Origin: Candidatus Nomurabacteria bacterium
Lineage (GTDB): Bacteria > Patescibacteriota > WWE3 > UBA101185 > UBA10185
NCBI GenBank assembly: GCA_020631855.1
Contig: JACKGU010000001.1
Span: 295,601-359,600 of the forward strand
DNA length: 64,000 nt
Reading direction: 5' to 3'
The notes under the pieces are model-generated. The model saw only the letters and a list, made by a program, of their open reading frames with translations. It had not been told where the DNA came from and did not search any database. Numbering within the stretch: the first letter of the stretch is position 1; each line of letters opens with the position of its first letter. Shown in pieces: positions 22,579 through 63,364 of the stretch. The position numbers and the translations under genes were made by a program.

Positions 22579-24696
22579 CTATTTGGCTTGATTTTTGTAA
22601 ACATTGATCAAAAACTCTACATGTGCATCAAAACCCTCACCTAGTTGTTCAACACCATATAAAATCTCTTCACGATCAATTTTAGCCGCAAAAGCCCTAT
22701 CTTTAAATTTCTTCTTTACTGACGATACTTTCATGCCGTCGTAACCTTCGGGGCGCATCAATGCGTACGCATATAGAAATCCGGCCATCTCATCCACGGC
22801 AATAAGCGCAGAGGCCAGCCTGGTCTGAGGTTTTACATTGGTTCTCATGTGAGCATGAGCTGCAACTGCATGAATTAAACTCTCAGGATAGTTTCTCTCT
22901 TTAAACCATTCTAATGATTTTGCAGGATGCTCATCAGGGTATTCAAAATAATCAAGGTCATGTAATAAACCTGTGATATACCAGAGTTCGCGATCTTCAT
23001 TGAATTTTTCAGCATATGCTTCAAGACCGCGGGCGATCATAAGAGCATGCTGTATTTGATAGCTGTCCTTGACATGGTCCCGTAAAAGCGCCTCCGCCTC
23101 CTTTCTAGAAGGTAGAAATCCCTCGGAGCTAATGTATAAACTCTCGTTTAAATCAGTTTTACTTAGAGAGTCTTCTACTAGAGGATCGCTCTTGGATAAC
23201 CCGTAGATTTCAGCGTTTGCATCGTCGTAAACATGCTTCAATTGAGGAAATGGAACTCCTTCCCTTGCTGTAACATCCTCTAAAAACCAAAAAACTCTTT
23301 CTGAATGACCATAACCAAATGTCGGCGGCATGCCGTATTCAAGCATTTCAACATAATCAATATCGAGCCACTGCGCTTCCGAATCACCGGAATCTCTCAT
23401 TGACTGCTGTTCCGAAAATCGTTCAAACTGATCCAAGCCACTATTTATTTCCGACCAGCCATTTCCGAGTTCGGAGCCGGCAATAATTGGCTGGAAACGC
23501 TCTGTTATTCTGGTATCTTTTGGGTTCGCCTTTGCTAACGGCGACAAATACTTAGGGTGATTAATTAAAAAGGCAGGCCCCCCAATAGTTCTACGTATTT
23601 CTTTCCAAAGAGCGTCCACTAATCGTGGCCGATTCTCTGTCTCTGCCTTTATTCCGGCTTTTTCGCAAGCTAGCTTTAAATCTTCAATACTTGAATTGTG
23701 TACGTCTACTCCATATCTCTGCTTCATGATGTCAGAGAAATCAATCCTTTCCCACTCTTTTTTGGAGAAATCAACTTCAAAACCCCTAATACTGAACTTC
23801 TTCTTATCTCCGTAAAGAGATTCAATCACGTAATTAAAAAGGTCTTGAATAAAATCCATACCTGATTGCCAATCAGCGTAAGCCCAATAAACCTCCATCG
23901 CCATGTGTTCGGGAAGATGCTCGTCGGATAAACCCTCATTTCTGAATCTTGGGCCTATTTCATAAACTTTTTCATAGCCCCCTCCAATTAATCTTTTCAA
24001 AAAAAGTTCATGGGAAATTCTAAGATAAAGAGTCTCATCGATGGAGTCCATATGAGTCACAAAAGGATTCGCGTCTGCCCCTCCGGGCACTGCTTCTAAA
24101 ACAGGAATATTAATCTCATAGAAACCCCTTTTTTCAAAAAACTCGCGATGAGCAGCCCAAAACTTAGAACGTCTAATGTATCTATCACGAACATCATCAT
24201 TTATCCTTGTATCTAGATATCTTTTACGCATTCTGGTCTCTCTGTCTTTAAGCCCATCGTGCTTGTCGGGCAATGGTCTAAGGGATTTGGCCAATATTCT
24301 TATGCTGTGGGGCTCTATAGACTGCTCGCCGCTATTTGTTATTACTAAAGCTCCCTTGCACTCTATATAATCTCCAATATCTAATAAATCCAGCTCAGAG
24401 TAGGATATTTCACTATTTTTGTGTTCAACTTTTTCAAGATTTTGTTCCTTAATATATACCTGAATTGTGCCTGAAAAATCTTTTATATCAAAAAATGTCA
24501 GCTTTCCATGTCTTCTCAACGACATGATCCAACCGGCTAAAATTACTTCCTTTCCCCCAAGTTTGCCAAAGCTGCTTATAACTTCAGAGATTAGGTGGGT
24601 CCTAAAAGACGTTGCCGGATAAGGATCAACGCCTAGATCTTGAAGATTTTTAAGTTTTTGTAATCTTACATCCCTTAGCTCTTTTAAAGTGGCCAT
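22579..24696 (-). CDS. lysS: Lysyl-tRNA synthetase (class II) fused to a C-terminal HD-domain (YqeK-like) phosphohydrolase module
   Basis: Start taken at the 'MATLKELRDVRLQKL' Met (ATG 24694-24696; the ORF extends to 24762). Residues about 1-510 are LysRS (OB anticodon domain, class II motifs 'FRNEGLSDEHLPEHMAMEVY', 'GSELGNGWSEI'). Residues about 525-705 carry H...LLHDLDY...HAVAAHAH...D, the HD-superfamily metal-ligand order. Confidence 0.9.
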   Translation of the reverse strand: MATLKELRDVRLQKLKNLQDLGVDPYPATSFRTHLISEVISSFGKLGGKEVILAGWIMSLRRHGKLTFFDIKDFSGTIQVYIKEQNLEKVEHKNSEISYSELDLLDIGDYIECKGALVITNSGEQSIEPHSIRILAKSLRPLPDKHDGLKDRETRMRKRYLDTRINDDVRDRYIRRSKFWAAHREFFEKRGFYEINIPVLEAVPGGADANPFVTHMDSIDETLYLRISHELFLKRLIGGGYEKVYEIGPRFRNEGLSDEHLPEHMAMEVYWAYADWQSGMDFIQDLFNYVIESLYGDKKKFSIRGFEVDFSKKEWERIDFSDIMKQRYGVDVHNSSIEDLKLACEKAGIKAETENRPRLVDALWKEIRRTIGGPAFLINHPKYLSPLAKANPKDTRITERFQPIIAGSELGNGWSEINSGLDQFERFSEQQSMRDSGDSEAQWLDIDYVEMLEYGMPPTFGYGHSERVFWFLEDVTAREGVPFPQLKHVYDDANAEIYGLSKSDPLVEDSLSKTDLNESLYISSEGFLPSRKEAEALLRDHVKDSYQIQHALMIARGLEAYAEKFNEDRELWYITGLLHDLDYFEYPDEHPAKSLEWFKERNYPESLIHAVAAHAHMRTNVKPQTRLASALIAVDEMAGFLYAYALMRPEGYDGMKVSSVKKKFKDRAFAAKIDREEILYGVEQLGEGFDAHVEFLINVYKNQAK

Positions 24697-24907
24697 TATT
24701 TTATTTCCTAAACTGAATACGTACTTCGCAATTATAACAGAAAAGGGGCAGGTACAAAGCACCCAAAAATAGTGCTAAAACATTTTTACGGCCTAAATTT
24801 TTTTATTTGCTTTTATATTGCTAACCCGAACAAAATTCTTTTAGTACATGGCCTAACCTGCTTATACTAGCCACAAACAACAAAGAACTGTAAAATATCT
24901 GCAGAGT

Positions 24908-25873
24908 ATGAAAAAAATAACTGAAGCTACGATCGCTCAAGGCACTAGGGTTTTTGTGAGTACAGATATAGATGTACCTATAGATAATGGGCATATTAGA
25001 AATACTTTTAGACTCGACCGTGGCTTAGAAACTCTTAAGTACATAGTAGATAAAGGAGCAATCCCAGTAATTGGGGGCCATATAAAAAATCCTCAAGGAA
25101 AATACGATCCCCAGCTTAGTACAGCACCTCTTAAAAAGTATTATAATGAAAAATTAGGGGAGGGTTCTTACGAACTATTAGAAAATCTGCGTTTTGACAT
25201 TAGAGAAGATCAGAATGAGGATACCTACGCACAGGAACTGGCAAATAAAACAGAGGTCTTTGTAAACGAGAATTTTGCAACCTCACATCGAACAAATGCT
25301 TCTTTAGTTGCTATTACTAAATACTTACCTTCATTCGCGGGACTTAATTTGAGCAGAGAAATCGAAGCTTTGGATAAAATACTTATCGACTACAAAAAGC
25401 CTTTTACTGCAGTTATTGGCGGAGCGAAAGTTGAAAGCAAGGCACCTGTTATTGATTCGCTTTGCAACATAGCTGACAATATCCTGCTTGGTGGGAAAAT
25501 AGGCTTAAACTATTCTACGGATAATGCTAGGGTGAGCTCTCCGGCCGACTACGCAGACGGTAATCAAGATATCGGCCCGAAAACAATCCTAAACTATACA
25601 GGATACATACTGTCAGCCCAAACACTTTTATGGGCCGGGCCTATGGGAGCTTATGAAAAAGACGAATTCTGTATTGGTACAAATCTAATCGCAGATGCGA
25701 TAGTGGAAGCAACAAAAGGCGGCGCTTATAGCATAATAGGAGGCGGAGATACGATTACAGCTTATAGCAAGAACCACGCATTGGGAGAAGTAAGTTTTGT
25801 TTCAACAGGAGGAGGGGCCATGCTGACATATCTGGCGCATAAGAATATGCCCGGCATTGAGGCTTTAGGATAA
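24908..25873 (+). CDS. pgk: Phosphoglycerate kinase (compact, 321 aa)
   Basis: 'RVFVSTDIDVPIDNGHIRNTFRLDRG', 'LENLRFDIRE', 'VIGGAKVESKAPVIDSL', 'GGGDT...STGGGAML' PGK blocks. About 70 aa shorter than typical PGK. Confidence 0.9.
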   Translation: MKKITEATIAQGTRVFVSTDIDVPIDNGHIRNTFRLDRGLETLKYIVDKGAIPVIGGHIKNPQGKYDPQLSTAPLKKYYNEKLGEGSYELLENLRFDIREDQNEDTYAQELANKTEVFVNENFATSHRTNASLVAITKYLPSFAGLNLSREIEALDKILIDYKKPFTAVIGGAKVESKAPVIDSLCNIADNILLGGKIGLNYSTDNARVSSPADYADGNQDIGPKTILNYTGYILSAQTLLWAGPMGAYEKDEFCIGTNLIADAIVEATKGGAYSIIGGGDTITAYSKNHALGEVSFVSTGGGAMLTYLAHKNMPGIEALG

Positions 25874-25876
25874 ATT

Positions 25877-26179
25877 ATGGCAAAAAGTTTAAAAGTTCAG
25901 TTTCCGGAACGTTGCATAGGCTGCGAACTGTGCATCATGGAAATACAAAGACAGCTTAAAAAACACGGCCTCGAAGGTTCTCTGATTAGAGTTTTTAAAA
26001 GTGCCAAAGAAGGAAAAGAAATATGCGAGACTCTGGAATACTCAATAGATCTAGACCCGAGCATAAATTCATACGACATTGAACAAATTAGGAAAATTTG
26101 CCCAAAAAGTGTTTTTGTTGTGGCCGACATGACAGAAGAAGAGAACTACGAAGACGCTCTGCTGGAACAGAAAGATTAA
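25877..26179 (+). CDS. Small ferredoxin-like Cys-cluster protein
   Basis: 100 aa; 'CIGCELC' (C-x2-C-x2-C) plus a distal 'ICP' Cys-Pro could ligate one [4Fe-4S]. Starts 4 nt after the pgk stop. Confidence 0.5.
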   Translation: MAKSLKVQFPERCIGCELCIMEIQRQLKKHGLEGSLIRVFKSAKEGKEICETLEYSIDLDPSINSYDIEQIRKICPKSVFVVADMTEEENYEDALLEQKD

Positions 26180-26181
26180 AT

Positions 26182-27015
26182 ATGCATAAATCAGTCTTAT
26201 TTGTTAATTTAAAAAATAAAACATACGAGGTTAAAAAATTTGACGAACTCGCAAAATACATAGGAGGAGTTGCTGTTGGATTTAAACTTCTTCTTGATAA
26301 TATAGAGCACGATCCAATTATATTTTCTATCGGACCTTTGAACGGCGTGTTTCCTTTCGCATCAAAAACTTCTATCGTTCTGCATAACAATGGCGTAGTC
26401 GAAGACTTATATATCGGGGGTTCCCTAAGCTCCAGAATGGCCTTTTCCGGGGTTGACTCCATAGTATTTATAGAATCCGCAGAAGAGCCCACATACGTTG
26501 AAATAACGAATGAGGAAGTGTTCTTTAAACCAATAACAACTGATATAGATTCTTTAGGATTACCGGGGAAAAGATCAGTTTTAAAACCAATTAAAAATAA
26601 ATACTTTTTAGATGATTATTTTTTAACTCCGGAGTTATTTTTTGAAGAAAAGCTTGCAAAGAAAAATGTAGGAGGAATAGTGTTAACAGGAACAAAAACA
26701 CGTGAAATAAAAAATCCTGAAAAATATAAGGAACTTTTACACGAAATATTAGGTAAAAAGTCTTTAATGGAAATAGATGAGGGAGATAGCCCCTCTTGCA
26801 CATTTTGTCCAATGGGGTGCTCAAAGTCTCGTACCGGAGAAATTGGAGGAAACATATTGGTACACAGCATGGTGGGATGCAAGCTTAGCCAAAAAATATA
26901 CAGCGACGTGGGAACAATTTTTTCTTGCTTGAGTGTGTTGGGCTATTCCTACACACACGAAGATATTGAAGACCTGCCTCTTCTGGTAAAAGAGGTACTG
27001 GAAAAATTAAATTAA
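26182..27015 (+). CDS. Truncated aldehyde:ferredoxin oxidoreductase (AOR) N-domain-like Fe-S protein
   Basis: 278 aa (start taken at 26182, not the upstream out-of-context ATG at 26098). 'VLFVNLKNKTYEVKKFDEL...GGVAVGFKLLLD...PIIFSIGPLNGVFPFASKTSIV...DLYIGGSLSSRMAFSGVDSIVFIESAEEPTYVEI' parallels the AOR N-domain ('IRVNLSTG.I...LGGRGL...LL..E....DPL.P.N.L..A.GPLTGT.AP...R..V..KSPLTG......GG..G.ELK.AG.D.IVV.G.AEKPVY'). 'CTFCPMGC' matches the AOR C-x2-C-x3-C cluster motif. There is no pterin-binding C-terminal half. Stop overlaps the tpiA start (TAATG). Confidence 0.55.
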   Translation: MHKSVLFVNLKNKTYEVKKFDELAKYIGGVAVGFKLLLDNIEHDPIIFSIGPLNGVFPFASKTSIVLHNNGVVEDLYIGGSLSSRMAFSGVDSIVFIESAEEPTYVEITNEEVFFKPITTDIDSLGLPGKRSVLKPIKNKYFLDDYFLTPELFFEEKLAKKNVGGIVLTGTKTREIKNPEKYKELLHEILGKKSLMEIDEGDSPSCTFCPMGCSKSRTGEIGGNILVHSMVGCKLSQKIYSDVGTIFSCLSVLGYSYTHEDIEDLPLLVKEVLEKLN

Positions 27016-27671
27016 TGAAATATTTAGTAGCAAACTGGAAATCTAATATGACAGTCTCCGAGGTTATTGTCTGGCTAAAAGCTTGGGATAAACTAATAAA
27101 AAGCGCAGAGAGTAATGATGCGGTAAGAGTTTTAGTAGCCCCTTGTTTTATACATCTTCCATTATTTACCGGTCTGGAAAATATTTATTCTTGCGGGCAG
27201 GATGTCTCGGAGAACAGCGTAGGGCCTTATACCGGATACGTGAATGCTACACAGCTAAGGGAATTCGCTGATTACAGCATAGTCGGGCACAGCGAAAGAA
27301 ATGAAGACTCTGAAACAGTTGTCAAAAAGATTAATCAGTGTAGAAATAACGGAATTGAGGCCATTGCTTGTTTCACTCACACTGAAAATGCAACAGAGTA
27401 TTCAAAATTCACAAAGATCTTAGCTTGGGAGGACCCTGAAAATATATCAAAACAAGGAAAGTATGCAGAATTAAGGTATGGTGAAATAAATCACTCTATT
27501 GAAAAAATTTACTCTAATATTGAACCCGATACTGTGTTATTATACGGAGGCTCTGTTAACTCGAATAATATTAGCGAATTAACTAGAATTAAGAGTATAT
27601 CGGGGTTTTTAGTAGGAAACGCAAGTCTGGACGTGGCTCACTTTTATAAGCTATACTGCTCCATGATCTAG
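27015..27671 (+). CDS. tpiA: Triosephosphate isomerase (compact, 218 aa)
   Basis: 'VANWKSN', 'GHSERN', 'YGGSVN', 'GFLVGNASL' TIM motifs. Confidence 0.9.
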   Translation: MKYLVANWKSNMTVSEVIVWLKAWDKLIKSAESNDAVRVLVAPCFIHLPLFTGLENIYSCGQDVSENSVGPYTGYVNATQLREFADYSIVGHSERNEDSETVVKKINQCRNNGIEAIACFTHTENATEYSKFTKILAWEDPENISKQGKYAELRYGEINHSIEKIYSNIEPDTVLLYGGSVNSNNISELTRIKSISGFLVGNASLDVAHFYKLYCSMI

Positions 27672-41797: not shown

Positions 41798-42469
41798 ATG
41801 ACAACTATTTATCTAGTTAGACACGGAGAAAACCTAGCAAACATTACCAGAGAACTTTCTTATAAACACATAGACTATGAGCTGACGAACAAAGGACATT
41901 TTCAAGCAGCTCAAACTGCTACAGCCTTTGATAATATAACCATAGATGCAATCTACTCTTCTCCTCTTAAAAGAGCGATGCAAACGGCAGAATATATAGC
42001 TAAAAGAAAGAAACTAATACCAAAAATTTTAGAAAACTTCAGAGAAATAAATATGGGAAAGGTCGAAGGGATGAAGCCAAATGAAGAAAGTTGGAAACAA
42101 TATTTTTTAATCACACATAAATGGTATATGGGCGAAGAAGACATAAGCTTTCCTGAAGGAGAAAACTACTCTCAGCTAGTTAACCGCTTTGCAACGGGCC
42201 TACTAGAAGCAATCAAAAAAACTCTGCACGGTAATATTGCAGTTATTGGGCATGCAGGCATCTTTGCAGCCGGAGTGATCCATCTTTGTAAAATAGAAAA
42301 TAAAAAAGAGTTTTCTGCTATACAAAACCATAACTGCTCAATAAGCGAGCTGTCGGTCACACAAAACAATCAAAACCTATCTTACTCCTTAGTCAAGTGG
42401 GCCGACAGCTCGCACTTAACGGGCAGCGCCGCGAAACTAGTTAAAGGCATGCCCGAATCGTCATCCTGA
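41798..42469 (+). CDS. Histidine phosphatase family protein (phosphoglycerate-mutase-like)
   Basis: 223 aa; 'IYLVRHGEN' RHG catalytic motif, downstream 'GHAG' His. Confidence 0.75.
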   Translation: MTTIYLVRHGENLANITRELSYKHIDYELTNKGHFQAAQTATAFDNITIDAIYSSPLKRAMQTAEYIAKRKKLIPKILENFREINMGKVEGMKPNEESWKQYFLITHKWYMGEEDISFPEGENYSQLVNRFATGLLEAIKKTLHGNIAVIGHAGIFAAGVIHLCKIENKKEFSAIQNHNCSISELSVTQNNQNLSYSLVKWADSSHLTGSAAKLVKGMPESSS

Positions 42470-55475: not shown

Positions 55476-56285
55476 ATGGACCTTAATGCTGCTCAAAACA
55501 CCAATAATCAACAGCTAAACTCGCACCCAGACGATGCTCAGAAAAATAAGCTCAATACGATTTTACCGGGCACCAATTCTCAAAGCTTGGGAGGGAATTC
55601 TCCGATTACAAGCATTGCAGGGGTGTCGGACGACGATCTTCAAAACAAAAGCATAAATCTAGACACGCAAGATACCCTAAGTACAGAAAATAAGACCAAC
55701 ACAAACAAAGAAATAGAAAAAGCAAAAGGCTACAAAGATGACATAAGTAAAATTGTATATGACTTTCTAGAAAAAAACGGAGAGAGCCTAGACAGTATGG
55801 AAGAGGTTCCATCAGACATAGGACCCTCAATAAATAACCATCCCGCAACACTTGGCCCCGGAAAAGGAAGAAGGGAGATTTTTACAAGCCCTGTAATAGG
55901 AACTATTAGTGAAAATGCGCCTATAAGCCATCGCGAAACCTTCCAAACTGAAATAGACCCGGCTTCTCAAACAGAGCAGATTTCTGTAGCTAAGGCAGAA
56001 ACATCCGCTCAAGAAGAAAAAAATTCTTCGGAAATTCAAAGTATACAGGAAGTATTACAAAACCCACAACCAGATTCCGAGAATTACGATAAAATATCAA
56101 CATTGATTCCAGAAACCGAACCTATACCGCAGCCGGATAGTGATTTGAACGTTGTTGACCTGAGAACAGGCCATGAAAATTTGCAACAAATTGCCGATCC
56201 AATAGATAAATTAACTGAAGAAGCAGATGAGAAAGAGGCAGACTTTATAACAAAAGTGGAGGATACACATGCTGTCGCTAACTGA
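55476..56285 (+). CDS. Acidic, low-complexity (predicted disordered) protein
   Basis: 269 aa; D/E/Q/S/T/N-rich, no TM. 3' end overlaps the start of the downstream ATPase gene by 17 nt, implying co-translation. Confidence 0.4.
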   Translation: MDLNAAQNTNNQQLNSHPDDAQKNKLNTILPGTNSQSLGGNSPITSIAGVSDDDLQNKSINLDTQDTLSTENKTNTNKEIEKAKGYKDDISKIVYDFLEKNGESLDSMEEVPSDIGPSINNHPATLGPGKGRREIFTSPVIGTISENAPISHRETFQTEIDPASQTEQISVAKAETSAQEEKNSSEIQSIQEVLQNPQPDSENYDKISTLIPETEPIPQPDSDLNVVDLRTGHENLQQIADPIDKLTEEADEKEADFITKVEDTHAVAN

Positions 56286-58677
56286 TATAGCCTACAACAT
56301 CTTCTGGATACTCTTTTACATTATTTTCTTGGCGAGCACTATATTAGGAATATTTTATATGCTTGCCAAAACCAAAAGACAAAGATTTCTAAAAAACAAA
56401 CAATATAATTTGACCTTCTTCCATGTTAAAGTACCACAACAAAACGAATTCGAAATAGATGCGGCAGAACAACTTTTTGCAGGCGTGGCAGGTTTGAGAA
56501 GATCAACTCTGGAAGGACTTTTGAAAGGCCAATACCAAGTCTCATTTGAGATCTTGGCCAAACACGGGCAAATAGGCTTCTATATAGTAATGCCTGACGA
56601 ATTGGTGGAATTTATGGAAAAGCAGATTAACGGGGCCTATCCTACTGCCGAAATAGACATTATTGATCCAAACGAAGTTTGGGACAGAGGGCACTTCACA
56701 GCTATCGCAGAGCTAAAACTTAAAGGACCGGCATTCTACCCTATTAGAACGATAAAAGAGAAAGAAGGTGACCCGCTAAGCACTCTCACCTCGGTACTAA
56801 CAAAGCTGAAAAAAGACGAGGTTATAGCTATTCAGCTTGTAACCTCACCTGCCAGTAACTGGTGGAGGGCTGCAGGAAATGCTTTTATCGGACATGTCAA
56901 ACACGGCGGAAATCCCGAAAAGAAAAGTGCCCCAGACAACTCCATGCTGGAAGGTGTTGAGAAAAAAATAGGAAAAAGCGGGCTTGATGTCGTTGTGAGA
57001 GTTGTCTCAATAGCTGAAACCAAACACATAGCGGAAAGCCACATAATGAACGTTGTAACCGCCTTCGAGCAGTATACTGATGTTAAATACAATAAATTCA
57101 AAAAAAGCAGAGTTTTATTTAAAACAAAATTTGTAAATGATTTCATTTACAGAAACATAACGCCTCTAAATATATACATCCCGATTTTATATAACACACT
57201 TTATAGCAGAACCTCGGTACTGAATATTACTGAGATGGCAAACATCTTCCACATGCCTAACAAAAACATACAAACTCCAAACATTCTGTGGCTAATTGCA
57301 AGAAAGGCGTCAGCCCCGTCAAACATACCTCACGAAGGCCTGTATTTAGGAATCAATCAGTTTAGAGGCTCACAGAGAGGTATCTATATGAAAGAGAAAG
57401 ATCGTACACGACATATGTATATTATAGGGCAAACGGGCACAGGTAAATCCGAGTTTATGAAGACACTGGTACTACAAGATATTGCCGCGGGAAAAGGTTT
57501 GGCTCTAATTGATCCTCACGGAAGCGATATAGACGATATCTTAGAAAAAATCCCGGAAAGCAGAATAGACGACGTAATACTTTTTGATGTTTCAGATATA
57601 GAACGCCCGATGGGATTAAACATGCTTGAAGCTGAAACCGAGGAAGAGAAACACATGATTATTAACTCATTTATTGCCTTGTTATATAAGCTATACGACC
57701 CAAACAGACAAGGTATCATGGGCCCTCAACTTGAAAGGGCTATAAGAAACGTTATGCTAACCGCAATGGTAGATAAAGAATCAACCATGGTAGATGTTCT
57801 AAGGCTATTGATCGACAACAAATATGTAGAAACTTTTATACCAAGAATTCAAGATCCACTAGTTAAACGGTACTGGACTGATGAAATGGCCAACACAAGC
57901 GACTACCATAAAGGCGAGAAAATGGGCTATTTTGTATCAAAATTTGATAGGTTCGTAACAGAGAGGACCATGAGAAATATACTAGGGCAACCAAAAAGTG
58001 CATTTAATTTTAACAAGATTATGGCAGAAAAAAAGATACTGCTCGTAGACCTGTCTAAAGGTAAGATTGGAGAAGAGAATTCAAACTTTATCGGCCTGCT
58101 TCTGGTTCCACGAATACTTGCTGCAGCTCTATCCAGAGCTTCCCTTTTAGGTAAAGAGGATTTCCCTGATTTTTATCTTTATGTAGATGAGTTTCAAAAC
58201 TTTGCCACACCTGACTTTGCTACTATACTGTCGGAAGCCAGAAAATATAAACTAAATTTGGTTGTCGCGCACCAATTTGTGGCACAGTTAACCGACGACA
58301 TTAAAGAAGCCGTGTTTGGTAACGTAGGAACAACTTGTGTTTACAGGGTTGGTCCGGACGATGCCGAATATCTTGAAAAACAGTTTGACCCTTATTTCAC
58401 AAAGTCAGATTTATTAAACTTGCCAATTGGAAACGCTTACATGAGGCTGCTTGTCGACGGCCACCCAACAACGCCTTTTTCCCTTGCTGTAGATTGGGAC
58501 ATGGTTAATAAAACTAAAAAAGATCCTTCTGTGGCAAAGAGAATAAGAGAAAACTCAAGCATGAAATACGGAACACCAGTAAATGAGGTTGAGGAATACA
58601 TAAATAAAAGGGCAGGGCTGAATAAACAAGGCGAGGATAGCCAACTACTTGAAAAAAGAAGTTTAATACCTTTTTAA
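56269..58677 (+). CDS. VirD4/TraD/TraG-like type-IV coupling-protein-family ATPase with N-terminal membrane anchor
   Basis: 802 aa; N-terminal TM (IFWILFYIIFLASTILGIFYMLA), about 300-aa domain of unknown function, then Walker A 'IIGQTGTGKSEFMKTL', coupling-protein-like Walker B 'YLYVDEFQNFATP' (xxDEFxN), C-terminal 'LNLVVAHQFVAQL'. The FtsK/HerA superfamily is certain; T4CP subfamily is probable. Confidence 0.6.
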   Translation: MLSLTDIAYNIFWILFYIIFLASTILGIFYMLAKTKRQRFLKNKQYNLTFFHVKVPQQNEFEIDAAEQLFAGVAGLRRSTLEGLLKGQYQVSFEILAKHGQIGFYIVMPDELVEFMEKQINGAYPTAEIDIIDPNEVWDRGHFTAIAELKLKGPAFYPIRTIKEKEGDPLSTLTSVLTKLKKDEVIAIQLVTSPASNWWRAAGNAFIGHVKHGGNPEKKSAPDNSMLEGVEKKIGKSGLDVVVRVVSIAETKHIAESHIMNVVTAFEQYTDVKYNKFKKSRVLFKTKFVNDFIYRNITPLNIYIPILYNTLYSRTSVLNITEMANIFHMPNKNIQTPNILWLIARKASAPSNIPHEGLYLGINQFRGSQRGIYMKEKDRTRHMYIIGQTGTGKSEFMKTLVLQDIAAGKGLALIDPHGSDIDDILEKIPESRIDDVILFDVSDIERPMGLNMLEAETEEEKHMIINSFIALLYKLYDPNRQGIMGPQLERAIRNVMLTAMVDKESTMVDVLRLLIDNKYVETFIPRIQDPLVKRYWTDEMANTSDYHKGEKMGYFVSKFDRFVTERTMRNILGQPKSAFNFNKIMAEKKILLVDLSKGKIGEENSNFIGLLLVPRILAAALSRASLLGKEDFPDFYLYVDEFQNFATPDFATILSEARKYKLNLVVAHQFVAQLTDDIKEAVFGNVGTTCVYRVGPDDAEYLEKQFDPYFTKSDLLNLPIGNAYMRLLVDGHPTTPFSLAVDWDMVNKTKKDPSVAKRIRENSSMKYGTPVNEVEEYINKRAGLNKQGEDSQLLEKRSLIPF

Positions 58678-58687
58678 GAAAGACGCT

Positions 58688-60565
58688 ATGGTAGAAACAG
58701 CAACCGCCGCAAATGACGCTTTAACAGCATTAAAGGGAAGGAGCGAAACAAAAGTTTCGCCTCTTGAAGAATTTTGGACAAATATAAATGCGCTTACTGC
58801 GGCTTCGCGACAACTGCTGACTAAAATAGAAACCAGCCCCCAGAGCGGACTGAATCAACGCAGAGCCGCACAGCTAGCTAGACAGGCTTTGGCTAGCTAT
58901 GAGATGACGACTAGCCTGACAGAAAATCCCACTAATAGAGAGGAAATTAATGCCCTTTCCAGGTTAGGCGCTGCGACAAACATCGACCCAACAAATCTAT
59001 ACAGAGAGACAATATTACTACAGCCGGAAGTACACTCGTATGAATATTCGGTCAAGCTGTTATTCTCCCACATAGTGTCTATGACCACTGAGGACAGAAG
59101 CAACACCACAAAAAACTTAGCATTGGTTTTAGCCGGGAATTGCTTAGACGGGAGTAAGGTTGATGTAAGAAAAATTCAAAACGAGCTCAGAGAATTAAAT
59201 TTTCCGAACCACCACTTATCAGAAGCAGCAGAGGCCATCGCTGCTATAATCCGGCATACGCCTTACAATCTAACAGATCATCAAGAAAAATTGGGGGTAA
59301 CAGGATACCCGGAAGTCTTGGCTAAAGCTTATAAGAGACTCTACGATCTAGCAACCAAACTTGATCCGGATACACCGCCTACAAAAGCGGAAGAAAGGTC
59401 ACAGCACCAACCCTATGCCAATTGGGAAGCCAGGGCCAAAGAAAGAGAATCGATACACTACAACAGTAATCCTAGAGAACACAAAATATTTTCACGTAAA
59501 GGAGAGATTTTGACTGCCAAGGGTTCGGAGAATAAAACAGCCCAAGTCTTAATTCCAACTGCCATACTTACCAGAACCGTACCTTTGGCGGACTTTGCAG
59601 GCAATGACAGGGCTTTCAATAAAGGATACGTAAAACTACAGCAGGTATTTACCTGCACAACATTTCAAGAAGTCGAAGCTACCCTTGAAATGCTAAACGC
59701 AGCATCTATTGCAGAAGAAGAAAAAACAGCACAGGTACCCATATATGTTCCTAAAACCGTGGTTCAAAATGGAAAAACAACAATTGAATATGAGATAACC
59801 TACATGGAGATGCCGATTGGAACCTATAATAGCTGGCGTAAAGCTTTAATGGAGGCTCGCAAATCCTACCTTAGAGCAGGATTTTCTATTCAAAACCAAG
59901 ATATAACTGCTGGAGTACGCTTAGCAACAGAGCAAGAGAATGCCTATGCAGAACAGACAATGTTGAATAGATATCAAGAGCTTTTGTCTGGACCTAGCCA
60001 TATCAAAGATTCTCTAGACGCATGGATGAGTCAAAGTCATTCAAGGGACAGATTTTACATTAAAGAATTGATGCAAAATACAATGGAACTAGTAAATGAG
60101 TTGACTGAAGAGCTTAATTTGACCCGAAACCCTCGCAATATAACATTAGAGGCTATGAAAACTCTTTATGAAGAAGGGCATGAGCAGCACCCACTGACGA
60201 TGGAAAAAGAAATAACACAGATGTTCGACAACAGAATGGCCGAGCGCTCTAACTATTATGTTGCAATGAAGGTAGCTTTGACAACTCTTGAAAATGTAAA
60301 TGCTTTACCGCCGCCAAGAGATCGCAAAGAAGCAAAAGAACAGATTAGAATGATTATAAATGTTCAAACACAAATAAAACAAATAATGCTTTTCTTGGCA
60401 CTTCAAGAAAAGGGCGTCTCCGAGAGCCGTGCCTCACAAGTCGCGCTGGAAAACTTCCCGGAACACTCAGTGATTAAAGCTCAAGTACCTTATAGGGCTA
60501 GAAATAGTCAAGCCAGAAGGGTTGCAGGAAAGAGACAAGCTGTTAGCAACCAAGGCTCTAGTTGA
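58688..60565 (+). CDS. Hypothetical 625-aa soluble protein immediately downstream of the coupling-protein-like ATPase
   Basis: No TM, no recognisable catalytic motif; mostly helical. Starts 11 nt after the ATPase gene stop. Confidence 0.4.
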   Translation: MVETATAANDALTALKGRSETKVSPLEEFWTNINALTAASRQLLTKIETSPQSGLNQRRAAQLARQALASYEMTTSLTENPTNREEINALSRLGAATNIDPTNLYRETILLQPEVHSYEYSVKLLFSHIVSMTTEDRSNTTKNLALVLAGNCLDGSKVDVRKIQNELRELNFPNHHLSEAAEAIAAIIRHTPYNLTDHQEKLGVTGYPEVLAKAYKRLYDLATKLDPDTPPTKAEERSQHQPYANWEARAKERESIHYNSNPREHKIFSRKGEILTAKGSENKTAQVLIPTAILTRTVPLADFAGNDRAFNKGYVKLQQVFTCTTFQEVEATLEMLNAASIAEEEKTAQVPIYVPKTVVQNGKTTIEYEITYMEMPIGTYNSWRKALMEARKSYLRAGFSIQNQDITAGVRLATEQENAYAEQTMLNRYQELLSGPSHIKDSLDAWMSQSHSRDRFYIKELMQNTMELVNELTEELNLTRNPRNITLEAMKTLYEEGHEQHPLTMEKEITQMFDNRMAERSNYYVAMKVALTTLENVNALPPPRDRKEAKEQIRMIINVQTQIKQIMLFLALQEKGVSESRASQVALENFPEHSVIKAQVPYRARNSQARRVAGKRQAVSNQGSS

Positions 60566-60628
60566 AAAATATCGAGGGCCTGTTTTTCAAATATACTACA
60601 AAAGCCCATTTATAGTATAATCAAGTAA

Positions 60629-61834
60629 ATGTTTAAACTGCCATTTAAAATAAATTTCAATAAAAAATCAAAAACGGATACTTTTTTAACAATAGACATA
60701 GGATCAAGCACAGTCAAAACACTAGCTTTTTATAATGACAGCGAAAGCAGATTAAAAGTAATCGGGCTGGGGAAGGAATTTTTACCCGAGGGTGCGGTAC
60801 GAGCCGGATATATAACTGATTTAAAAAGTGTCATAGAAGCAGTGGACGAAACAATTTATCAGGCCCTTGCTAATACGGAACACAGAATTACAGATGCGAT
60901 AATAGGAATATCCGAAAACCTGTGCTATTCGCAAGTTACAACCGGCCGGCTAAACAGAACTACGCCGGGAGAACTGGTTACAGAGAAAGAGCTGGATAAT
61001 TTGAAATACAAAATAATTGATGCTGCGTACAACACGGCCCTAGATGATTTTGTCTATAAAACCGGCGATCTTTCAACAGAGCTTATTCATATAAGCTCTA
61101 TTCCGGCCCATACAAAACTTGATTCAAAGATTGTTGACGACCCAACCGACTTGCCGGGAGCAAAAGTTGAGCTGGCAATTTACAATGCCTATTCCCCCGA
61201 ATATCATACAAAGCAACTGCAAAAAATTGCTGACACGCTAAAACTTTCAGTTTTAGCTATGGTTCCCAACATGTTCTCGTTAGGGGAAGCCCTAAAAAAA
61301 CTCACAAAGGACAATGAGTTGGATTGTATCATTTTAGATATCGGGGGAGAAACAACAGATGTAGGAATTATGTTTGGAGGGGGCCTTATAACTACAAAAA
61401 GCTTACCTATAGGAGGAAGGCACTATACAGAACAGCTATCTTTACAGAGCGGCCTTACTTGGGCAGAATCTGAAAAAAAGAAGAATCAGTACTATTTCGG
61501 ACAAACAGCAGATACAGAAACATCTTTCATCGAAACAGTAATGACTGAAACAACCGACCTGTGGCTCAGCGGGCTGGAAACCCTGTTTAATGAATTTAAT
61601 GGGGTCAGGACCTTTGCATCTGATATATTTGTAGTTGGGGGAGGAAGCTTGCTACCCGATATAATGGCAGCTCTAGAGTCCAGGCCATGGACAAAATCCA
61701 TACCTTTTAGAGAGCCGCCAAGAATAAAACGGGTCAGCATTTCTGAGCTGGATTTTGCTAGAGATACAACCGGCAAACTAAATGAATTGGATTATATTCA
61801 AGCCCTGTCTTTAGGTTTGATGGGAGAATATTAA
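60629..61834 (+). CDS. Actin-fold ATPase of the PilM/FtsA family
   Basis: 401 aa; 'FLTIDIGSSTVKTLAF...LKVIGLGKEFLPEGAVRAGYITD' (phosphate-1/adenosine motifs) and 'ILDIGGETTDVGIMFGG' (phosphate-2). No ftsZ follows, which favours PilM-like over FtsA. Confidence 0.55.
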   Translation: MFKLPFKINFNKKSKTDTFLTIDIGSSTVKTLAFYNDSESRLKVIGLGKEFLPEGAVRAGYITDLKSVIEAVDETIYQALANTEHRITDAIIGISENLCYSQVTTGRLNRTTPGELVTEKELDNLKYKIIDAAYNTALDDFVYKTGDLSTELIHISSIPAHTKLDSKIVDDPTDLPGAKVELAIYNAYSPEYHTKQLQKIADTLKLSVLAMVPNMFSLGEALKKLTKDNELDCIILDIGGETTDVGIMFGGGLITTKSLPIGGRHYTEQLSLQSGLTWAESEKKKNQYYFGQTADTETSFIETVMTETTDLWLSGLETLFNEFNGVRTFASDIFVVGGGSLLPDIMAALESRPWTKSIPFREPPRIKRVSISELDFARDTTGKLNELDYIQALSLGLMGEY

Positions 61835-63364
61835 ATGACAAAATTTGAAATTGAAATACACGACGATTTAATAAATGTGCTTGGAAAACTACAAACAATA
61901 AATGACGACGGAATTGAGCTCATTATTCCTGAAGGTTCAGTAATTTTTGAAAACATTTTAAATCTTAGAATTATTCAAAAAGAACTTGAAAAATCTGGAA
62001 AAACAATACATTTCGAGACGTCGGATGAAAACGGAAAAAGACTTATAGAAAATCTTGAAAATGACTCCTCCGGCCTTTCTTCCGAGCTGGATTTTACAGA
62101 AGCTGAAGCAACTGAAATAAACCCAAAAACACACAGAAAAAAACAACGCACGGTCTCGCTTGCATTACCTAAATTTAAATTTTCAGGGGGTACAAAATTT
62201 AAAATAGCAGGTTTAATAGGAGTTGTGACCGCCGTAATCATAGGAAGTTTATACCTATTGATTTGGAAACAGCATAAGGCAATCGTAAATTTAGTCGTGG
62301 AGGCACAGCCTCTGGTTAAGAGCGTACAGATTAGAGTGGCAACAAACAGCGAAACAAATACCGAACAAAAAACTCTAAAAGGCTCACAAGTAAGTACAAG
62401 CACCGTCCAGACCGCGAGCGTGCCAACAACAGGGGAAAAACTGGTAGGTAACCAAGCCTCAGGAACTGTAAAAATTTACAACAAAACAACAAATGGTAAA
62501 ACCTTTAAAAAAGGTACGGTTCTTGTCTATAAAAAAGACGATAAAACCCTAAAATATACACTTGACGAAGAAGTAGAAGTACCTGAAAGAACGGAAGATA
62601 TCTTGCAGGATCCGCCATTAATAACTTGGGGTGAAAAAGAAGTTGATGTTACAGCAGAGGAAATAGGAAATTCTTATAATATTGACTCGGGCGAAAGTTT
62701 GGATTTTGATGATTTCGACAAGGACGATTACACTGCAAAGAGCACGACAAAAATCAACGGGGGCAGCAGCGAGACACTTAAAATTGTGGCCCAAGAAGAT
62801 ATAGACAACCTACTTATCGAGCTGGAAAAAAGTGACGATAAAACTAAAACCGAGCTACAGCAAAAAACTTCGACAGGACGAAAATTAATTCCCGGGTCAA
62901 TCAGCCTTCAGACAACAAAAGATTCCTTTAGCGCCGAACTAGGAGACGAGGCGGAAAATCTAGAGCTTGTCAGAGAAGCGACGGCCACAGGGCTAACTTA
63001 TTCCGAAAATGAACTGGAAGTTCTACTAGACAGACTCGTAGATGATTTCGTCCCGGAAGGCTTTGAGCTATCGACAAAAGACAAGGAGATAAAAGCAGAG
63101 GTCTTAGGTGCAACGGAAACTACGACACTTTCAAGCGAACAGGCCGATTTACAGGTAACCATTAAGGCTTACGTGATACCAAAAATTGATGAGATCGAGC
63201 TAAGGGAGAATTTGGCAGGGGCCCCGTTGTCGAAAGCAGAAGAAATATTAAATGCTATTTCTAATGTTGCAACCTATTCTTTAGATGTAAAACCAAATAT
63301 TCCGCTGCTTAATTCCCTTCCCCATAATCCGGAAAATATAGAGATAACAGTAACTAAAAGGTAA
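61835..63364 (+). CDS. Bitopic membrane protein (about 115-aa cytoplasmic N-terminus, 1 TM, about 370-aa extracytoplasmic domain), hypothetical
   Basis: 509 aa; TM 'IAGLIGVVTAVIIGSLYLLIW'; T/S/E/K-rich external domain. Starts 1 nt after the PilM/FtsA-like gene. Confidence 0.4.
   Translation: MTKFEIEIHDDLINVLGKLQTINDDGIELIIPEGSVIFENILNLRIIQKELEKSGKTIHFETSDENGKRLIENLENDSSGLSSELDFTEAEATEINPKTHRKKQRTVSLALPKFKFSGGTKFKIAGLIGVVTAVIIGSLYLLIWKQHKAIVNLVVEAQPLVKSVQIRVATNSETNTEQKTLKGSQVSTSTVQTASVPTTGEKLVGNQASGTVKIYNKTTNGKTFKKGTVLVYKKDDKTLKYTLDEEVEVPERTEDILQDPPLITWGEKEVDVTAEEIGNSYNIDSGESLDFDDFDKDDYTAKSTTKINGGSSETLKIVAQEDIDNLLIELEKSDDKTKTELQQKTSTGRKLIPGSISLQTTKDSFSAELGDEAENLELVREATATGLTYSENELEVLLDRLVDDFVPEGFELSTKDKEIKAEVLGATETTTLSSEQADLQVTIKAYVIPKIDEIELRENLAGAPLSKAEEILNAISNVATYSLDVKPNIPLLNSLPHNPENIEITVTKR

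Follow-up and report, generated by a model that had tools for sequence, protein, structure and literature searches.

Two small genes, ORFA and ORFB, lie between the glycolytic genes pgk and tpiA in a 64,000-nucleotide (nt) stretch of DNA from a Candidatus Nomurabacteria bacterium of the WWE3 (Katanobacteria) lineage (contig JACKGU010000001.1, positions 295,601 to 359,600), hereafter called the window. The product of ORFB is an internally deleted relative of aldehyde:ferredoxin oxidoreductase (AOR), not a simple truncation of one, and that of ORFA a small ferredoxin-like protein. Together they are best explained as a pterin-less two-cluster iron-sulfur module (a pseudo-AOR and a ferredoxin), which would be co-expressed with lower glycolysis and would act as an electron relay or redox-state module. 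The probability of this reading is put at about 0.55, its structural part being far more secure than its physiological part. The ORFA/ORFB pair is an old conserved unit of WWE3/Patescibacteria. The two genes and the segments of ORFB that carry the argument are as follows.

25877-26179, + strand: ORFA, 100 amino acids (aa), single-cluster [4Fe-4S] ferredoxin-like protein with C13, C16, C19 ... C75-P76
26182-27015, + strand: ORFB, 277 aa, an internally deleted AOR-family protein ('mini-AOR')
26191-26757, + strand: ORFB residues 4-192, AOR domain 1, by BLAST to domain 1 of long-form and canonical AORs
26797-26820, + strand: ORFB C206-x2-C209-x3-C213 (CTFCPMGC, residues 206-213), three AOR-type [4Fe-4S] ligands
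26863-26973, + strand: ORFB residues 228-264, HSxVxC233 ... C249 ... YTH259EDIE, AOR domain-3 segment

With Pfam AFOR_N (PF02730), residues 4-118 of ORFB scored 72.1 bits (cutoff 29.8; E 6.6e-20). No match to AFOR_C (PF01314) was obtained at E<=1 in the Pfam search. An AlphaFold model of ORFB built with 31 homologues gave a pTM of 0.82, with pLDDT mostly >85 in domain 1 and high for residues 1-196. The model was compared with the PDB using Foldseek, and nine significant matches were obtained, all of them to the AOR family (AOR, FOR, WOR5, BamB, AorB), with E values of 1e-13 to 3e-10 over ~230 columns; the next match stood at E 0.014. By profile and predicted fold, ORFB is a genuine AOR relative. 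An AOR-type N-terminal domain had been proposed from the letters alone (the original prediction), as the first ~130 residues of a 278-aa protein. The homology is borne out, while the protein is one residue shorter and its domain-1 homology extends to ~190. This domain carries two small deletions, seen by BLAST and in MAFFT alignments with bacterial 580-600-aa AORs and with longer Patescibacteria relatives (the long forms described below).

The CxxCxxxC motif of ORFB is paired by HMMER with C-Y-A-C-P-I-G-C of 1aor (chain residues 286-298). This AOR-type motif had been pointed out originally, in a protein thought to end ~45 residues later. In fact 64 residues follow, and they correspond to a segment of AOR domain 3. 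ORFB 225-263 aligns with residues ~455-492 of the long forms and ~490-523 of the canonical AOR P0178 (BLAST; MAFFT). We take this to be the domain-3 'DSLGLC' stretch, in which the cysteine is presumably the fourth AOR cluster ligand, C494 in P. furiosus. Since ORFB 225-263 corresponds to the fourth-ligand segment, C233 completes a four-cysteine site and is to be added to the three ligands named earlier. C206, C209, C213 and C233 correspond to all four ligands of the AOR [4Fe-4S] cluster, and binding of a cluster is predicted. The claim that domains 2 and 3 are lacking thus stands for the missing AFOR_C match, but not for the fourth-ligand segment of domain 3, which is kept.

Compared with canonical AORs, ORFB is without ~60, 190 and 55 residues in three separate stretches of the alignment. 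The first loss is a ~60-residue linker ahead of the cluster loop. The second removes ~190 residues 3′ of the loop, including the conserved motifs YDYE, GLDxxS, GYHTG and RHSH, and the third the C-terminal ~55 residues. YDYE and GLDxxS are paired by HMMER with EYES and GLDTIS of P. furiosus AOR, presumably the catalytic Glu and the first pterin-binding motif, respectively. The first DxxGL(C/D) pterin motif falls inside the deletion and the second reads H-S-x-V-x-C in ORFB. Domains 2 and 3 of AOR hold two pterins in the solved structure. In that structure, the conserved motifs lost from ORFB presumably make up the tungstopterin pocket and the catalytic Glu/His region. Because the AFOR_C match and the pterin and catalytic motifs are gone, neither tungstopterin binding nor aldehyde oxidation is expected of ORFB.

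Homologues of ORFB were found in 312 protein clusters of ~276-296 aa. Conservation was scored over 78 distinct orthologues of 275-302 aa, the most distant of them 30% identical to the window copy. C206, C209, C213, C233, C249, K62 and H259 are invariant in all 78, and 34 positions are conserved at >=97%, with GLPGKRS and GEIGGN as lineage-specific motifs. In the HMMER alignment K62 stands opposite an Arg of P. furiosus AOR, presumably R76, which would bridge cluster and pterin phosphate. Canonical AORs do not conserve C249 or H259. Of the aligned Patescibacteria forms, all that have the cluster motif retain H259, and the three cluster-less long forms have lost it. These patterns indicate that the ORFB family is under strong constraint and is not a decaying remnant.

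An exhaustive profile search divided the relatives of ORFB into three size classes. The first, ORFB-like, comprises ~40 representative clusters of 270-300 aa. The second is formed by the long forms of 538-554 aa, which match AFOR_N and, weakly, AFOR_C. The third consists of two ultra-minis of 215-217 aa (P0197, P0200) that are without the second half of domain 1 and without C249, and retain the four cluster cysteines and a YTHEE motif. Among the long forms, P0174, P0177 and P0181 (for example the ~550-aa protein at L089 8001-9653) are without the CxxCxxxC and the H259 equivalent, which looks like a decay route alternative to the mini form. The long and ultra-mini forms have comparable surroundings. 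The order is pgk, a 79-aa ferredoxin-like gene, a 538/545-aa long form, LCP and holA at L087, L094 and L095; at L089 gapA is followed, further on, by a 78-aa ferredoxin-like gene, a 550-aa long form, LCP, holA and a sortase gene. The ultra-mini of L090 (8001-8648, 215 aa) lies 3′ of pgk and a 79-aa ferredoxin-like gene. All four cysteines are kept by the small genes of all these loci.

In a neighbour-joining tree (276 columns, 100 bootstraps), the Patescibacteria forms made one clade (100), apart from the bacterial 580-600-aa AORs. Minis and ultra-minis formed one clade within it (100), sister to the long forms with the cluster motif (61). The nearest relatives outside Patescibacteria are ~580-aa AORs of Firmicutes, Treponema and sulfate reducers, with 29-34% identity. 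In a Firmicute locus (L093, 578 aa) a 127-aa polyferredoxin gene lies directly upstream, overlapping the AOR gene, in surroundings free of glycolysis genes. By alignment and tree, the sizes of ~580, ~540, 277 and 215 aa read as a reductive series. ORFA and ORFB would descend from a bacterial two-subunit AOR made of a small iron-sulfur and an AOR subunit. Likely, such an enzyme entered the ancestor and settled 3′ of pgk; the ancestral AOR then likely lost its active-site motifs, and in the lineage of the window it was likely trimmed to the cluster module.

Homologues of ORFA were collected from the loci (79), and 69 sequences, partners of the long and ultra-mini forms included, were aligned. 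C13, C16, C19 and C75 are the only invariant columns and P76 is conserved at >=90%; Cys50 of the window copy is not conserved in the family. The pattern CxxCxxC...CP is of the single [4Fe-4S] ferredoxin type, in a small, acidic protein (pI 4.9) with ~55 residues between its two cysteine motifs. The window copy remains below the Pfam Fer4 threshold (16.0 bits vs 21.1). Fer4 is matched at E<0.01 by 40 of the 69 family members, and the partner of the L089 long form passes Fer4_15 over its full length (23.3 vs 22.4). ORFA is termed ferredoxin-like, as in the original prediction, because of its cysteine motif and the weak profile matches. In the loci examined it is always paired with an AOR-derived partner and never found alone. 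When the ORFA family was aligned by hhalign with the Firmicute AOR-associated polyferredoxin, just the 12-column cysteine motif was covered. Descent of ORFA from the polyferredoxin is not supported by an alignment of this extent.

ORFA and ORFB are embedded in a glycolytic gene cluster with the following further features.

24868-24896, + strand: sigma-70-like promoter match directly 5′ of pgk, TAGCCA-17-TAAAAT, 9/12 matches
24908-25873, + strand: pgk, 321 aa (PF00162, 259 bits)
27015-27671, + strand: tpiA, 218 aa (PF00121, 128 bits), its start overlapping the ORFB stop

The four genes are real and tightly packed head to tail, in the order originally given. The spacers are 3 nt between pgk and ORFA, where 4 had been counted, 2 nt between ORFA and ORFB, and a 1-nt TAATG overlap between ORFB and tpiA, the last two as described before. 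The site at 24868-24896 is a possible start of the operon. It is weak evidence, because promoter-like sites in the region are no more numerous than expected from shuffled sequence. A terminator scan gave the same result, and no terminator-like site was called on the + strand from pgk to the end of tpiA, in a scan within chance level. No RNA features were detected in the 64 kb (Rfam gathering scan, 0 matches; ARAGORN, 0 tRNAs; no rRNA). Copies of the locus identical to that of the window occur on 17 metagenome contigs, and all named homologues are labelled WWE3 or Patescibacteria.

The neighbourhood was examined in 80 loci from a scan of one genome per species; with metagenome loci included, 86 were compared by tblastn. 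ORFA, ORFB and tpiA are contiguous in 84 of 84 loci with callable genes. Their junctions are mostly overlaps or gaps of -17 to +4 nt, with full ranges of -32 to +67 nt for ORFA/ORFB and -38 to +53 nt for ORFB/tpiA. No frameshifted or stop-bearing copies of either gene were found in the 84 loci, barring contig-end cuts. pgk is directly 5′ of ORFA in 66 of the 68 loci having both, and 10 loci have no pgk and carry gapA directly 5′ of ORFA. A canonical gapA was called upstream, within ~3.6 kb, in 57 loci; it lies within 60 nt of pgk in half (22/44) of those with gapA and pgk. Since a thioredoxin gene (trx) stands directly 5′ of gapA, often overlapping it, in 52 of the 57 gapA loci, trx-gapA behaves as a unit heading the glycolytic cluster (for example L005 6469-7844, L016 7367-8723 and L094 3257-4545; neither gene is in the window). 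From the gene order of the relatives, the ancestral cluster is read as trx-gapA-pgk-ORFA-ORFB-tpiA, followed by LCP, holA and sortase genes.

No GAPDH gene is present anywhere in the 64-kb window (tblastn, best E 2.9), as had been stated originally. The accompanying argument, that the pair sits in the position of gapA, does not hold: ORFA and ORFB lie between pgk and tpiA, and the place of gapA is 5′ of pgk, where it is found in most relatives. Because most relatives carry trx-gapA just upstream, the pair neither occupies the place of gapA nor, in general, replaces it. It would supplement GAPDH. In the closest relatives (L007, L008, L010, L011 and L072) trx-gapA was not found within at least 8.7 kb upstream. 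A divergent lysyl-tRNA synthetase gene occupies the upstream region instead, both there and in the window. L008 has also lost pgk, and its ORFA-ORFB-tpiA remain. The simplest reading is that trx-gapA relocated as a unit in the subclade of the window. GAPDH is reported to be nearly universal in the candidate phyla radiation (CPR) (PMC7304191). When metagenomes were scanned using an alignment of WWE3 GAPDH, generic GAPDH patterns dominated; among the matches listed the best identity was 59%, and none of their contigs could be linked to the organism of the window.

The pair is still best read in line with one of the options of the original prediction, as a module for electron transfer or regulation that is linked to lower glycolysis. 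ORFA and ORFB would be made 1:1 and, by analogy with complexes of AOR and iron-sulfur subunits, would form a heterodimer with its clusters within electron-transfer distance. Without the pterin site, the module would no longer oxidise aldehydes, glyceraldehyde-3-phosphate included. Its role would instead be that of a low-potential relay with two clusters, or of a redox-state module, produced alongside the enzymes of lower glycolysis, and it would most plausibly exchange electrons with ferredoxin-dependent fermentation steps, namely PFOR and hydrogenase. PFOR, ADP-forming acetyl-CoA synthetase and a 3b hydrogenase are encoded in a WWE3 genome (PMC3812714).

Several points weigh against this reading. 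Confidence in the ORFB model fails just where the cluster would sit (pLDDT <50 at residues 197-241). The ORFA model (AlphaFold2, 10 sequences) is poor, with pLDDT 57 and a β-α-β-β-α-β topology; searched against the PDB with Foldseek, it returned generic β-α-β-β-α-β folds only (PII, CutA; E>0.01), which speaks neither for nor against a ferredoxin fold. Cluster binding, complex formation and the partners of the pair are all inferred. Neither the invariance of C249 and H259 nor the thioredoxin gene in the conserved cluster is accounted for by a simple electron relay. The L089 long form lost its CxxCxxxC while its small partner retains four cysteines, and since some long forms have done so, the cluster of the large subunit seems dispensable in some lineages. 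LCP, holA and sortase are equally syntenic downstream. Gene order is generally conserved in the lineage, and synteny is therefore weaker evidence for a glycolytic role.

Among the alternatives, a redox sensor or regulator is the main rival, though a rather unlikely one. Here the pair, perhaps with thioredoxin, would sense the redox state of the cell or relay it to the enzymes of lower glycolysis, either by ferredoxin-dependent reduction of the catalytic cysteine of GAPDH or of thioredoxin, or by cluster loss that switches enzymes off. The position of trx directly 5′ of gapA, the translational coupling to pgk and tpiA, and the extra invariant C249 and H259 beside the cluster segment, of which H259 tracks the cluster motif, argue for it. 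A regulatory (or a new catalytic) role fits C249, H259 and the trx gene better than a relay does. Set against this, the single extra invariant Cys offers no redox-active pair, direct reading of the sequence reveals no likeness to FTR (CPC/CHC) or Hdr CCG motifs, and trx-gapA is not near the pair in the subclade of the window. A pterin-free iron-sulfur enzyme that carries out a new reaction on a triose phosphate or a phosphoglycerate, adding or bypassing a step of lower glycolysis, is quite unlikely. Its active site would consist of an exposed [4Fe-4S] cluster together with C249 and H259, these two lying where the pterin pocket used to be. The density of conserved positions over the 78 orthologues, the lineage motifs, the invariant C249 and H259, the adjacency of tpiA without exception, and K62 in the column of an Arg that presumably contacts phosphate in P. 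furiosus AOR are in keeping with such an enzyme. Four Cys ligands, however, leave no open aconitase-type iron site on the ORFB cluster, the lineage has no known missing glycolytic step, and the ultra-minis do without half of domain 1 and C249. Seen more broadly, reuse of the pair as a ferredoxin-linked redox device acting on lower glycolysis, whether by reduction of GAPDH or thioredoxin or as a cofactor-free triose-phosphate iron-sulfur enzyme, is unlikely; if true, it would give Patescibacteria a previously unknown ferredoxin link to GAPDH-PGK-TIM.

The remaining explanations are less probable still. ORFB could be one half of a split enzyme, as originally suggested, with the pterin-binding half encoded elsewhere and assembling with it into a working AOR. 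It retains the parts of AOR around the cluster, which form the base beneath the pterins, and its constant length suggests a defined module. This is very unlikely, however, given that the deletion is internal and in three pieces, with no clean break, and that tblastn with the middle region missing from ORFB, taken from five long or canonical AORs, gave no match in the window or in the ~80 related, mini-bearing loci. The lone AFOR_C-only match, P0319 on a 1.6-kb contig, looks like a fragment. A GAPOR-like mini-enzyme that, with its ferredoxin, stands in for GAPDH in this genome was the leading idea of the original prediction. The absence of gapA from the window and from at least 8.7 kb upstream in the five closest relatives speaks for it, as does the membership of GAPOR in the AOR family. 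It is nevertheless highly improbable: the pterin domains and the stretch aligned to E-Y-E-S are deleted, canonical gapA shares the cluster with the pair in most lineages, and pgk is kept next door. GAPOR yields 3-phosphoglycerate directly, and pgk is then no longer needed for glycolysis in the forward direction. Placement of ORFB in the GAPOR subfamily is likewise rejected. ORFB does not match NCBIfam GAPOR_Arch (NF040818), and the long relatives are AOR-like, with 18-30 bits against that model's cutoff of 1300; among solved structures, P. furiosus AOR comes closest to them (127 bits). The reported near-universal occurrence of GAPDH in CPR (PMC7304191) also counts against a stand-in. Finally, a functionless relic persisting through frozen gene order, or the degenerate remnant once considered, is scarcely credible. 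The equally syntenic non-glycolytic neighbours (LCP, holA, sortase) and the successive losses in the family would suit it; intact frames of constant length in >300 clusters, five invariant Cys down to 30% identity over the 78 distinct orthologues, and the lack of broken copies in the 84 loci do not.

AOR enzymes are known as tungstopterin catalysts of the 600-aa class. If the pterin-less module is accepted, a lineage has reduced AOR to an iron-sulfur module and kept it with a ferredoxin partner under strong and long selection, and the cluster-bearing core of AOR can have an independent life. The pair sits inside TIM/GAPDH/PGK, a metabolic module that almost all Patescibacteria are reported to have. 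Redox proteins are very scarce in these organisms, and knowing the role of the pair would fill a gap in the picture of their fermentation electron balance. Metabolic reconstructions should list ORFB-type genes neither as aldehyde:ferredoxin oxidoreductase nor as GAPOR. Their database labels read 'AFOR_N domain-containing', 'hypothetical' or, wrongly and in several JGI entries, 'aldehyde:ferredoxin oxidoreductase'. In a full-text literature search no paper was found that describes the family, its architecture or its operon, in agreement with the earlier impression that the arrangement is undescribed. Under electron carriers, the 2013 description of the first complete WWE3 genome (PMC3812714) names no more than 'a ferredoxin oxidoreductase-like protein', which may or may not be an ORFB-type gene product.

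Other features of the window were recorded alongside. In alignment with T. maritima PGK from the PDB, the window PGK is without ~50 C-domain residues (around 222-292) and ~12 residues near position 90, and its short length is common across the lineage. The loop-6 region of the window TIM reads AWEDPENISKQG vs AYEPVWAIGTG in bacteria. This fits, at the level of the loop sequence, the published grouping of Katanobacteria TIMs with archaeal TIMs (PMC7304191). The lysyl-tRNA synthetase gene divergent from pgk (22579-24762, - strand) encodes tRNA_anti-codon and tRNA-synt_2 domains fused to a C-terminal HD phosphohydrolase domain (705-727 aa in total), a fusion also present in L008. A His_Phos_1 protein of 223 aa (41798-42469) is encoded 15 kb downstream, beyond hrcA-grpE-dnaK-dnaJ; it is probably a cofactor-dependent phosphoglycerate mutase and would add a further gene of lower glycolysis to the window. 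At 55476-63364, a run of large ORFs (269, 625 and 509 aa), none of them matched in Pfam, lies around a DUF87/HerA-like ATPase (56269-58677) and an FtsA/PilM-like protein (60629-61834); this may be a pilus or secretion-type cluster.

Among known systems, archaeal GAPOR resembles the pair in the respects that underlay the original analogy, namely AOR-family membership, use of ferredoxin and a glycolytic role. It differs in its full length, the NCBIfam model covering 654 positions; here pgk is kept, and gapA is kept in most relatives. Single-cluster ferredoxins (Fer4_15/Fer4_13) share with ORFA the CxxCxxC...CP pattern, the small acidic character and, as far as its poor model shows, the β-α-β-β-α-β topology, and a relative of ORFA matches Fer4_15. 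They are shorter, whereas ORFA has its ~55-residue spacing between the motifs and the window copy stays below Pfam thresholds. Two-subunit AORs (WOR5 L/S 6x1o, AorAB 8c0z, bifurcating AOR 9mqx D/E, BamBC 4z3w) likewise have a small iron-sulfur partner. Matches of the ORFA profile in the PDB to the iron-sulfur subunits of WOR5, AorAB and bifurcating AOR were weak and not significant (E 0.02-0.9). These subunits hold three or four clusters against one in ORFA, and their large subunits have the catalytic centre that ORFB is without. The arrangement of ORFA and ORFB is also that of the Firmicute locus L093, with its small iron-sulfur gene directly upstream of, and overlapping, the AOR gene. The AOR family proper (1aor; C. 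autoethanogenum AOR 9g7j; FOR 1b25) has ~300 residues more than ORFB: the linker ahead of the loop, domains 2 and 3 almost in full, and 55 residues at the C terminus. With these, ORFB has presumably lost the first DxxGLD pterin motif as well as the catalytic Glu/His region. What the family has in common with ORFB is the domain 1 fold with GGxGL, GPLxG and GGxxxxxxxFAGxD, the CxxCxxxC loop and distal 'SLxxC' cysteine for a [4Fe-4S] cluster, predicted in ORFB, and the 'LGxDxTxEEL' helix that follows.

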